A stretch of 5,809 bases of DNA from IMG/VR virus record IMGVR_UViG_2531839233_000007, one strand, 5' to 3'. Position numbers and translations under genes: made by a program. The notes below the pieces were generated by a model that saw only the letters and a list, made by a program, of their open reading frames with translations, was not told where the DNA came from and searched no databases. The stretch is from a virus (lineage: Duplodnaviria; Heunggongvirae; Uroviricota; Caudoviricetes). Shown piece by piece: positions 4,278 to 4,951 of this stretch (position 1 is its first letter; every line of letters begins with the position of its first letter).

Positions 4278-4700
4278 TCAATGCACTACGACAGAATCGC
4301 TAGGAGAACCGCCGCCGCTGAAATGTGCTTTACGGTAAACGGCCTGGACTGCATCATCATGCGCATCAATTGCCGTACTCAGTGCATCCTGTGCCGCCAG
4401 TAATGCACGGCGTTCCAGGGTATCGAAGATGCAGAGTCGGTGACGCAGCTCGCGAGGAAGAATTGCCAGAACCGCAGGGATCAGTTTCTGAATTTTTTCC
4501 CTTTGCGCATTCGTTTCACCTTTCAACCAACGATGATAGATATTCTGCTGATTGTTCCAGTCCTTGCCTGGTACCAGGGGCAATTCGCCGCCCCCCTGGC
4601 GCAGATATTCTTCAGTAATTGCGTTAGCGACCCACGCCTGCCCTTTTTCGGCTGCCAGGGCTAACAACACTGATTCGATGTGCTCATGCTTGATTTTCAT
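4278..4700 (-). CDS. ydaT: YdaT-family protein (lambdoid CII functional analogue, historically annotated as toxin YdaT), 140 aa
   Basis: ORF track; N-terminus MKIKHEHI as I recall for YdaT-family proteins; ATG 4700..4698 overlaps the TGA of the cro-like gene (ATGA) with GGGAG upstream; position immediately after the cro-like gene. Confidence 0.75.
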   Translation of the reverse strand: MKIKHEHIESVLLALAAEKGQAWVANAITEEYLRQGGGELPLVPGKDWNNQQNIYHRWLKGETNAQREKIQKLIPAVLAILPRELRHRLCIFDTLERRALLAAQDALSTAIDAHDDAVQAVYRKAHFSGGGSPSDSVVVH

Positions 4701-4951
4701 GAATCAACTCCCATCAGCTTTTTCGTAGTAGTTTTATTTCTGCCAATAGTTAAAATTGCATCGGCAGAAAATAATCCGTTTGATGCATGAGCGATTTTTT
4801 CAGCGTAATTTGTTTCGCCGGTATATTCTGTGCGAGGCAATTTACCGTTATCCATCCATTTGTAGATTGCTCTTTGGCTGACACCACAAACGTCGGCCAC
4901 AACAGAAACGCGAACAGTTTTGATTACATCTTCAAGTGTTTTCTGGTTCAT
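4697..4951 (-). CDS. Cro-like HTH regulator (YdaS/Cro family), 84 aa
   Basis: Internal ATG 4951..4949 of the 108-aa track ORF, preceded by GAGGGTGAT; HTH-like VVADVCGVSQRAIYKWMDNGKLP; divergent from the repressor gene across an operator-containing intergenic region. Confidence 0.8.
   Translation of the reverse strand: MNQKTLEDVIKTVRVSVVADVCGVSQRAIYKWMDNGKLPRTEYTGETNYAEKIAHASNGLFSADAILTIGRNKTTTKKLMGVDS

Follow-up and report, generated by a model that had tools for sequence, protein, structure and literature searches.

The window analysed here is the whole 5,809-nt stretch of the IMG/VR virus record IMGVR_UViG_2531839233_000007 (Caudoviricetes), in which two small genes on the minus strand, one for an 84-aa helix-turn-helix (HTH) protein and one for a 140-aa protein of the YdaT family, are joined by an ATGA overlap. 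The pair very probably encodes the Cro-like and the CII-like (YdaT) regulators of the genetic switch of a Rac-type lambdoid prophage. The coordinates and lengths of the two genes and their 4-nt overlap, as given in an original prediction made from the letters of the sequence, were found to be correct when the open reading frame (ORF) translations were checked and the junction was read, and the pair is confirmed as real. The features at the junction are as follows.

4951-4697, minus strand: Cro-like HTH gene, clean translation of 84 aa plus stop, first gene of the rightward early operon
4700-4278, minus strand: ydaT, clean translation of 140 aa plus stop, functional analogue of CII
4697-4700, minus strand: ATGA stop/start overlap, read from the sequence (TGA stop 4699-4697, ATG start 4700-4698)
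4708-4712, minus strand: GGGAG Shine-Dalgarno sequence of ydaT, within the cro-like coding sequence, 7 nt 5' of the ATG
4690-4707, unstranded: perfect YdaT-box TTGATT-CATGAA-AATCAA, 0 mismatches (12/12), with the ydaT ATG and the cro-like TGA both in the 6-bp spacer

Read on the minus strand, the cro-like gene ends with GTT GAT TCA TGA and ydaT begins with ATG AAA ATC AAG. The ATGA overlap is the commonest overlap between bacterial genes and is unremarkable when taken alone. The ORF list also contained a longer alternative for the Cro-like gene, 108 aa from the ATG at 5023. The 84-aa start was preferred, since a GAGGG Shine-Dalgarno sequence (4960-4956) precedes it, homologues start from the same Met, and RefSeq and one deposited phage both annotate a gene of 255 nt, and also since the ATG at 5023 falls among the operators, 8 nt from the ATG of the divergent repressor gene.

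The assignment of the 140-aa protein to the YdaT family was borne out: it passed the Pfam model YdaT_toxin (PF06254) with 43.1 bits against a cut-off of 21, and it matched phrog_163, 'CII-like transcriptional activator', with an E-value of 5e-36. It is 94% identical to the YdaT of the E. coli K-12 Rac prophage, and all of the eight differences lie outside residues 14-63, a segment which includes the recognition helix. The recognition-helix residues H56, R57 and W58 (Rac numbering, in NIYHRWLKG) are present, and R57 and W58 were invariant among 14 homologues. In a phmmer search residues 1-140 could be aligned to both solved YdaT structures, PDB 8bt1 and 3c4r, with about 30% identity. In the AlphaFold2 (AF2) model, computed from an alignment that did not contain the K-12 YdaT sequence (pLDDT 81.5), helices were predicted at residues 5-19, 21-34, 47-58, 64-80, 83-88 and 95-127, with a loop at 35-46, so that the modelled protein consists of an HTH (POU-like) domain of five helices, in which a long loop connects alpha2 and alpha3, and of a long C-terminal helix. 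The sole PDB matches of the model in Foldseek were 3c4r and 8bt1 (probability 1.0, TM-score 0.63-0.71). By its predicted fold the product of the second gene belongs with HTH transcription factors that carry an oligomerisation helix, and it has no toxin fold. None of the window proteins matched the Pfam family Phage_CII, and YdaT is related to lambda CII as a functional analogue only, without membership of its family.

The 84-aa protein matched phrog_35, transcriptional repressor (E 1.5e-14). In Pfam no family was above the cut-off, YdaS (PF15943) and PF14549 giving no match, and BLASTP found no similarity between the protein and the YdaS of K-12. When family profiles were compared by hhalign, the 84-aa family was related to the YdaS family with a probability of 97% (E 4e-11), and some remote homologues of the protein carry PF15943. 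The original prediction had spoken of a YdaS/YdaT pair; this holds in so far as the 84-aa protein is a remote relative of YdaS, but the protein fails the Pfam YdaS model, and the name is true of it in that distant sense only. Its AF2 model (five helices, pLDDT 79) resembled best the Xfaso-1 Cro protein (3bd1, TM-score 0.69), N15 Cro, P22 c2 and YdaS (8c7k/8co2), with E-values which are weak (at least 0.02) because the domain is small. The modelled structure has the all-alpha, five-helix HTH fold of the Cro/cI type, and the label Cro-like is supported.

The perfect YdaT-box was the only match to TTGATT-N6-AATCAA in the window, and 0 of 200 shuffled sequences contained one. Since the stop/start ATGA lies in the spacer of the box, the overlap is embedded in the operator of the activator itself. 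The same site was footprinted in K-12 Rac (ATGATTCATGAAAATCAA) and in CP-933P (PMC11879457, PMC9986795). Direct-repeat sites of the CII type, for which a search had been proposed earlier, turned out to be the wrong target: no TTGC-N6-TTGC repeat of the lambda CII type was found in the window, and YdaT recognises the inverted repeat TTGATT-N6-AATCAA (PMC9986795, PMC11879457), which here lies on the ATGA overlap. An mRNA hairpin formed by the palindromic box and hiding the AUG of ydaT was considered and rejected, as the fold was no better than that of shuffled sequence (z -0.70).

The junctions were compared in 93 loci encoding relatives of the window YdaT. A scan of genome contigs yielded 10 loci, and the greater part of the survey is based on IMG/VR contigs; the loci are redundant and non-independent samples, and the counts given here are not frequencies. 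A box with at most two mismatches spanned the ydaT start codon in 93 of the 93 loci, and the DNA upstream of TGATT varied. At least five Cro-type upstream genes (YdaS family, plain HTH_3 and window type) were joined to it at TGATTnATGnAAATCA. The window type stood upstream in 35 loci, a plain HTH_3 protein in 31, the K-12 YdaS in 14 and a second YdaS-like type in 7, and three further YdaS-like proteins occurred in Salmonella, Klebsiella, Raoultella and Lelliottia. The Cro proteins of the window type and of the HTH_3 type are unrelated but have the same C-terminal residues, VDS, since the left half of the box supplies the final codons, GTT GAT TCA TGA, of each gene. The junction was ATGA in 66 of the loci and TAATG or TGATG (1-nt overlap) in three distant genera; elsewhere the stop codon lay 3 nt before the ATG, 17 nt into ydaT in a different frame or, in K-12, 22 nt upstream. 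All junction types have kept a purine-rich Shine-Dalgarno sequence which adjoins the box on its upstream side, at about 7 nt from the ATG of ydaT.

The limits of the exchange could be placed by comparison with K-12 Rac, with which homology by blastn was limited to 4280-4706 (92.5%), 5575-5749 (98%) and 2187-3785. Since the homology stops at 4706/4707, the segment 4707-5574 is a swapped immunity cassette, the right-hand breakpoint of which is at the first base of the box. In E. coli CI5 (L094 3000-3676) the cassette of the window, with identical box and junction, is fused to a YdaT of the CP-933P type with an identity of only 31%; the YdaT alleles of the window and of CI5 have their first seven codons (MKIKHEH) in common. 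In the other direction, YdaT proteins at least 94% identical were found behind three kinds of HTH protein: that of the window, a plain HTH_3 protein and members of the YdaS family. Since the same Cro gene is joined to divergent YdaT proteins and similar YdaT proteins are joined to different Cro types, the partner is exchangeable, which speaks against a cognate antitoxin. Among 5426 complete E. coli genomes, ydaT of the window type was present in 1506 (about 28%), labelled 'toxin YdaT family protein', and the immunity cassette of the window in 1049 (19%). An identical gene set is found in Escherichia phage vB_EcoS-673R7, where the genes are annotated as Cro and activator protein cII.

Upstream of the pair the following features of the immunity cassette were recognised.

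5031-5450, plus strand: CI-type repressor gene, 139 aa, HTH_3 (Pfam E 1.8e-9), distantly DicA-like
4967-4981, 4991-5005 and 5024-5038, unstranded: three operator-like sites TGAAC-N5-GT(T/A)CA, found by repeat search within the 79-bp divergent region
4995-5023, plus strand: PRM-like promoter CTGACA-17-TATCAT, ending 7 nt 5' of the repressor ATG
4797-4827, plus strand: predicted candidate for a reverse (PRE-like) promoter, TTTTCA-19-TATATT, inside the cro-like gene and directed toward the repressor gene
4707-5574, unstranded: the immunity cassette (cro-like gene, operators, repressor gene), without similarity to K-12 racR-ydaS and with K-12-like DNA on both flanks

The match of the repressor to the DicA subfamily of NCBIfam was below its cut-off. 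The three operator-like sites would presumably be bound by protein; the third of them (5024-5038) is a perfect TGAAC/GTTCA palindrome which overlaps the start codon of the repressor gene. The PRM-like promoter was the sole promoter-like site in the consensus scan and had the highest position weight matrix (PWM) score in the window. Since it ends 7 nt before the repressor ATG, a leaderless repressor mRNA is predicted; the cI mRNA of lambda is likewise leaderless. For PaaR2 of CP-933P such an mRNA was demonstrated (PMC8630535). The candidate reverse promoter TTTTCA-19-TATATT is sigma-70-like and scored 10.2 with the PWM; of the 11,556 positions scored in the window, 5 (this one included) reached 10 or more. 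It is the best candidate for the YdaT-dependent promoter, and its predicted position is analogous to that of PracR4 inside the K-12 ydaS (PMC11879457). A lambda-like PRE with the box at -35 was also sought by PWM scan and inspection, and no acceptable -10 element was present at the right distance in the window; a box at -35 was suggested in the Raoultella and Salmonella loci only.

The operon order is that of lambda. The window contains, in sequence, the repressor gene (plus strand), the 79-bp operator region, the cro-like gene, ydaT, the genes for an O-like initiator and a DnaC-like loader, and the DUF1627 and DUF977 genes, which is the canonical early-right arrangement of lambdoid phages. 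The statement that the pair lies after the operator and before the initiator gene, in the position of cro and cII, is thereby confirmed. In lambda, with its order cI - OR - cro - cII - O - P-like loader, the activator binds, as in the window, at the 5' end of the gene that encodes it, where the exchangeable immunity region ends, and the transcript activated by CII crosses cro in the antisense direction and continues into the repressor gene. There is no relation in sequence or family to lambda: the sites of CII are TTGC-N6-TTGC direct repeats, that of YdaT is an inverted repeat, and the YdaT tetramer is closed and 222-symmetric.

The closest system studied is the racR-ydaS-ydaT region of K-12 Rac. 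Wons et al. (2025, PMC11879457) showed that its YdaT is a tetramer and that the double substitution H56A R57A abolishes binding to DNA. The protein protects the Rac site across the ydaT start codon, and through this YdaT-box it activates the reverse promoter PracR4 inside ydaS, and hence racR, up to 29-fold; its overexpression is lethal via direct activation of the host gene rcsA (PMC11879457). The window shares with Rac the YdaT protein with H56 R57 W58, the box over the ydaT start with the CATGAA spacer, the chromosomal site at ttcA and the flanking kil, recET, xisR-intR and ydaV. It differs in the repressor, the operators and the Cro-type gene, which are unrelated in sequence, in the box half (perfect TTGATT in the window, ATGATT in K-12), in having a 4-nt overlap in place of the 22-nt gap of K-12, and in its initiator, which is of another type, the N-terminus not being that of the DUF1376 protein YdaU. 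Moreover, PracR4 sits in ydaS, a gene which is absent from the window.

In the paaR2/ydaS-ydaT region of CP-933P (O157:H7, PDB 8bt1), YdaT binds TTGATT-N6-AATCAA at the ydaS/ydaT border, activates PRE933P and is non-toxic (Jurenas et al. PMC8630535; Prolic-Kalinsek et al. PMC9986795). Family, fold and tetramer architecture are the same as for the window YdaT, as are the box at the border of the cro-type gene and ydaT, the Cro/CII-like role and the leaderless repressor mRNA, which in the window is predicted. In contrast, the identity of the two YdaT proteins is about 30%, the CP-933P protein is non-toxic and without action on rcsA, and the repressor operon of CP-933P carries a paaA2-parE2 toxin-antitoxin (TA) module that is absent from the window. 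The original prediction had pointed to published work on CP-933P arguing for a Cro/CII role; this work exists (PMC8630535, PMC9986795), but the closest homologue studied is the Rac protein and not the distant one of CP-933P.

On this basis the following model can be suggested. The 84-aa protein would act as an all-alpha Cro-type HTH regulator belonging to one cassette with the divergent 139-aa repressor and the three TGAAC-N5-GTTCA-like operators. YdaT, as a tetrameric HTH factor, would bind the inverted repeat straddling its own start codon, and from this box it would stimulate plus-strand transcription, antisense through the cro-like gene and into the repressor gene. Such YdaT-stimulated transcription of the repressor gene would favour the establishment or maintenance of repression, like that of lambda CII at PRE. 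That YdaT in the cassette of the window has the same activity as the 94%-identical Rac protein, including tetramer formation, DNA binding and box-dependent activation toward the repressor gene, is expected by analogy, and the position of the activated promoter is likewise put forward by comparison with Rac. The overlap itself would be a by-product of module joining, in which different cassettes have recombined onto a joint made up of the box and the initial ydaT codons; each cro ORF would read on into the box as far as the first in-frame stop.

Several points weigh against this model. The YdaT-dependent promoter is predicted only, and its 19-nt spacer is suboptimal. Transcription starts inside the box in CP-933P, whereas in Rac the promoter is about 190 bp away (PMC8630535, PMC9986795, PMC11879457); since these geometries disagree, the mechanism of activation is unsettled even in the model systems. 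Rac YdaT binds its intergenic region too, while in the repressor-cro intergenic region of the window no YdaT-box with at most three mismatches was found. Finally, Rac YdaT also acts on the host rcsA and kills on overexpression (PMC11879457).

The last point leads to the interpretation current in the databases, which do annotate YdaS/YdaT pairs as TA modules, as had been stated: the Pfam family is named YdaT_toxin, the RefSeq product 'toxin YdaT family protein', and it was for their TA-like arrangement that the genes were classed as a TA module by RASTA-Bacteria and Pfam. YdaT would then be the toxin of a type II system and the upstream HTH protein its cognate antitoxin, neutralising it by direct binding and autoregulating the operon. 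The two small genes, overlapping or abutting and with the HTH protein encoded first, do resemble modules of the HigA-/HipB-type, and overexpression of K-12 YdaT is lethal (PMC11879457). However, the second protein has the fold of a DNA-binding tetramer, its model matching 8bt1 and 3c4r alone, and not that of a toxin. The partner is not fixed and has been exchanged in both directions, while a cognate antitoxin should stay with its toxin, and the operon would be repressed by the divergent CI-type repressor and not by a TA complex. The toxicity of Rac YdaT is a regulatory side effect through rcsA (PMC11879457) and the CP-933P protein is non-toxic (PMC8630535); when neutralisation by direct antitoxin binding was looked for in the literature, the results were negative for both the Rac and the CP-933P pairs (PMC5700373, PMC8630535). 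We therefore regard a TA module as highly improbable. The test proposed in the original prediction, by which toxicity would indicate a TA role and its lack a CII role, does not discriminate, since Rac YdaT is lethal on overexpression, through activation of the host rcsA, and yet a CII-like activator (PMC11879457), CP-933P YdaT being non-toxic (PMC8630535). Its preference for the Cro/CII role over the TA role is supported by the fold, the box, the exchangeable partners and the literature.

In another interpretation YdaT, in a largely cryptic prophage, would be mainly a regulator of the host (activation of rcsA and the Rcs regulon, filamentation), its phage role being vestigial. Rac YdaT does bind and activate the host rcsA (PMC11879457), the window YdaT has the same recognition helix, and the surrounding prophage carries frameshifted recE and intR. 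Against this, a working phage switch is indicated by a box without mismatches, by an operon that is intact and by the occurrence of an identical module in deposited phage genomes which are complete, and the host effect requires overexpression; the two roles are, moreover, not mutually exclusive. A mainly host-directed YdaT is thus considered improbable. Somewhat more credit, though still on the doubtful side, is given to the idea that the ATGA overlap exists for translational coupling, so that synthesis of YdaT would require translation of the Cro-like gene and keep a fixed ratio to it. In most junction types the genes do overlap by 4 nt or 1 nt, or the stop lies within 3 nt of the ATG, and 66 of the 93 loci have ATGA. 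On the other hand, every junction type has a good Shine-Dalgarno sequence about 7 nt before the ydaT ATG, the genes of K-12 are 22 nt apart, and in another type there is an overlap of 17 nt with a change of reading frame; cro ORFs ending inside a conserved box fully explain the overlap, and the 93 loci are not independent. The earlier claim that the overlap implies coupled translation is consequently weakened: coupling is possible but not required, ydaT having its own GGGAG Shine-Dalgarno sequence and K-12 its gap.

Returning to the pair as a Cro/CII-type switch, the kind of system is already known, near-identical copies have been studied, and phage records already annotate Cro and cII. What is added is modest, namely that the overlap lies inside the binding site of the activator and that the box is the exact mosaic joint for cassette exchange. 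The main value is in annotation, as the label 'toxin YdaT family protein' is misleading for a pair which is a lysis/lysogeny switch module of a phage. As a tentative generalisation, the YdaT-box and the first ydaT codons may be a conserved recombination joint, by which many unrelated cassettes are served by one activator specificity and one cassette accepts very divergent ydaT alleles, YdaT perhaps having a fuller CII-like regulon which includes a box at xisR-intR. That the box is the joint raises the question how one activator finds promoters in several unrelated cassettes: the promoter may belong to the ydaT part, beyond the joint, or a reverse promoter may come with each of the cassettes.

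The box at xisR-intR lies in the same prophage outside the window (L001 26768-26785), 51 nt upstream of xisR-intR, and reads CTGATT-ATTAAT-AATCAA (11/12). It is identical in K-12 Rac (L093 1704-1721), goes unmentioned in the study of Rac YdaT (PMC11879457) and is centred, by eye, near -43 of a possible TAACAT -10 element. It could be an analogue of PI; counting against such a role, the box precedes xis as well as int, and excision of Rac was reportedly not induced when YdaT was expressed (PMC11879457). Of 1925 matching genomes, 1517 have the region with an identity of at least 99%, hence a test of conservation is uninformative. A further weak box was seen at the other end of ydaT.

4264-4281, unstranded: second YdaT-box TTGATT-GAAATT-AATCGT (10/12), spanning the stop codon of ydaT, at a distance of 426 bp from the perfect one

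Sites with at most two mismatches are expected 0.54 times per window, so this one is not above chance. It travels with the downstream O-like module, is absent from K-12 and CI5 and is more degraded in 6 loci. It is regarded as probably due to chance or of low affinity.

In E. coli 2013C-3277 and in many related strains (Shiga-toxin-type E. coli) a prophage inserted beside ttcA matches the window with 99.7% identity. In this prophage the window is flanked on one side by kil, recE/recT, ralR and xisR-intR, while lysis genes follow on the opposite side. According to RefSeq, recE and intR are frameshifted, and a frameshifted DUF4014 pseudogene lies at about 869-1086 of the window (L001 14808-15025); with these three lesions the prophage of the RefSeq strain is probably defective. 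A Rac-like ydaT region (93-94% protein identity) was also met in contig JARKOR010000130.1 of a 'Candidatus Nanosynbacter' metagenome-assembled genome (Saccharibacteria) and in Actinobacillus phage vB_Apl-pPE4, unexpected hosts which suggest contamination or mis-binning.

Downstream of ydaT lies the initiator gene.

3412-4200, minus strand: O-like replication initiator, 262 aa (phrog_2509, E 3e-88)

Between ydaT and this gene, at 4243-4264, there is a strong hairpin, TACCGAAC-N6-GTTCGGTA, which scores as terminator-like on the plus strand, and the fold of the 90-nt intergenic RNA is much stronger than that of shuffled sequence (z -3.3). The tR1 and oop of lambda have roughly the same position. 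An Rfam scan of the whole window, the hairpin region included, gave zero matches at the E-value threshold. A palindrome of 19-21 bp, TGTAACGC-N5-GCGTTACA, is present in three copies (3814-3834, 4021-4041 and 4213-4233), one just upstream of the O-like initiator gene and two within it, and these are probably initiator or origin binding sites.

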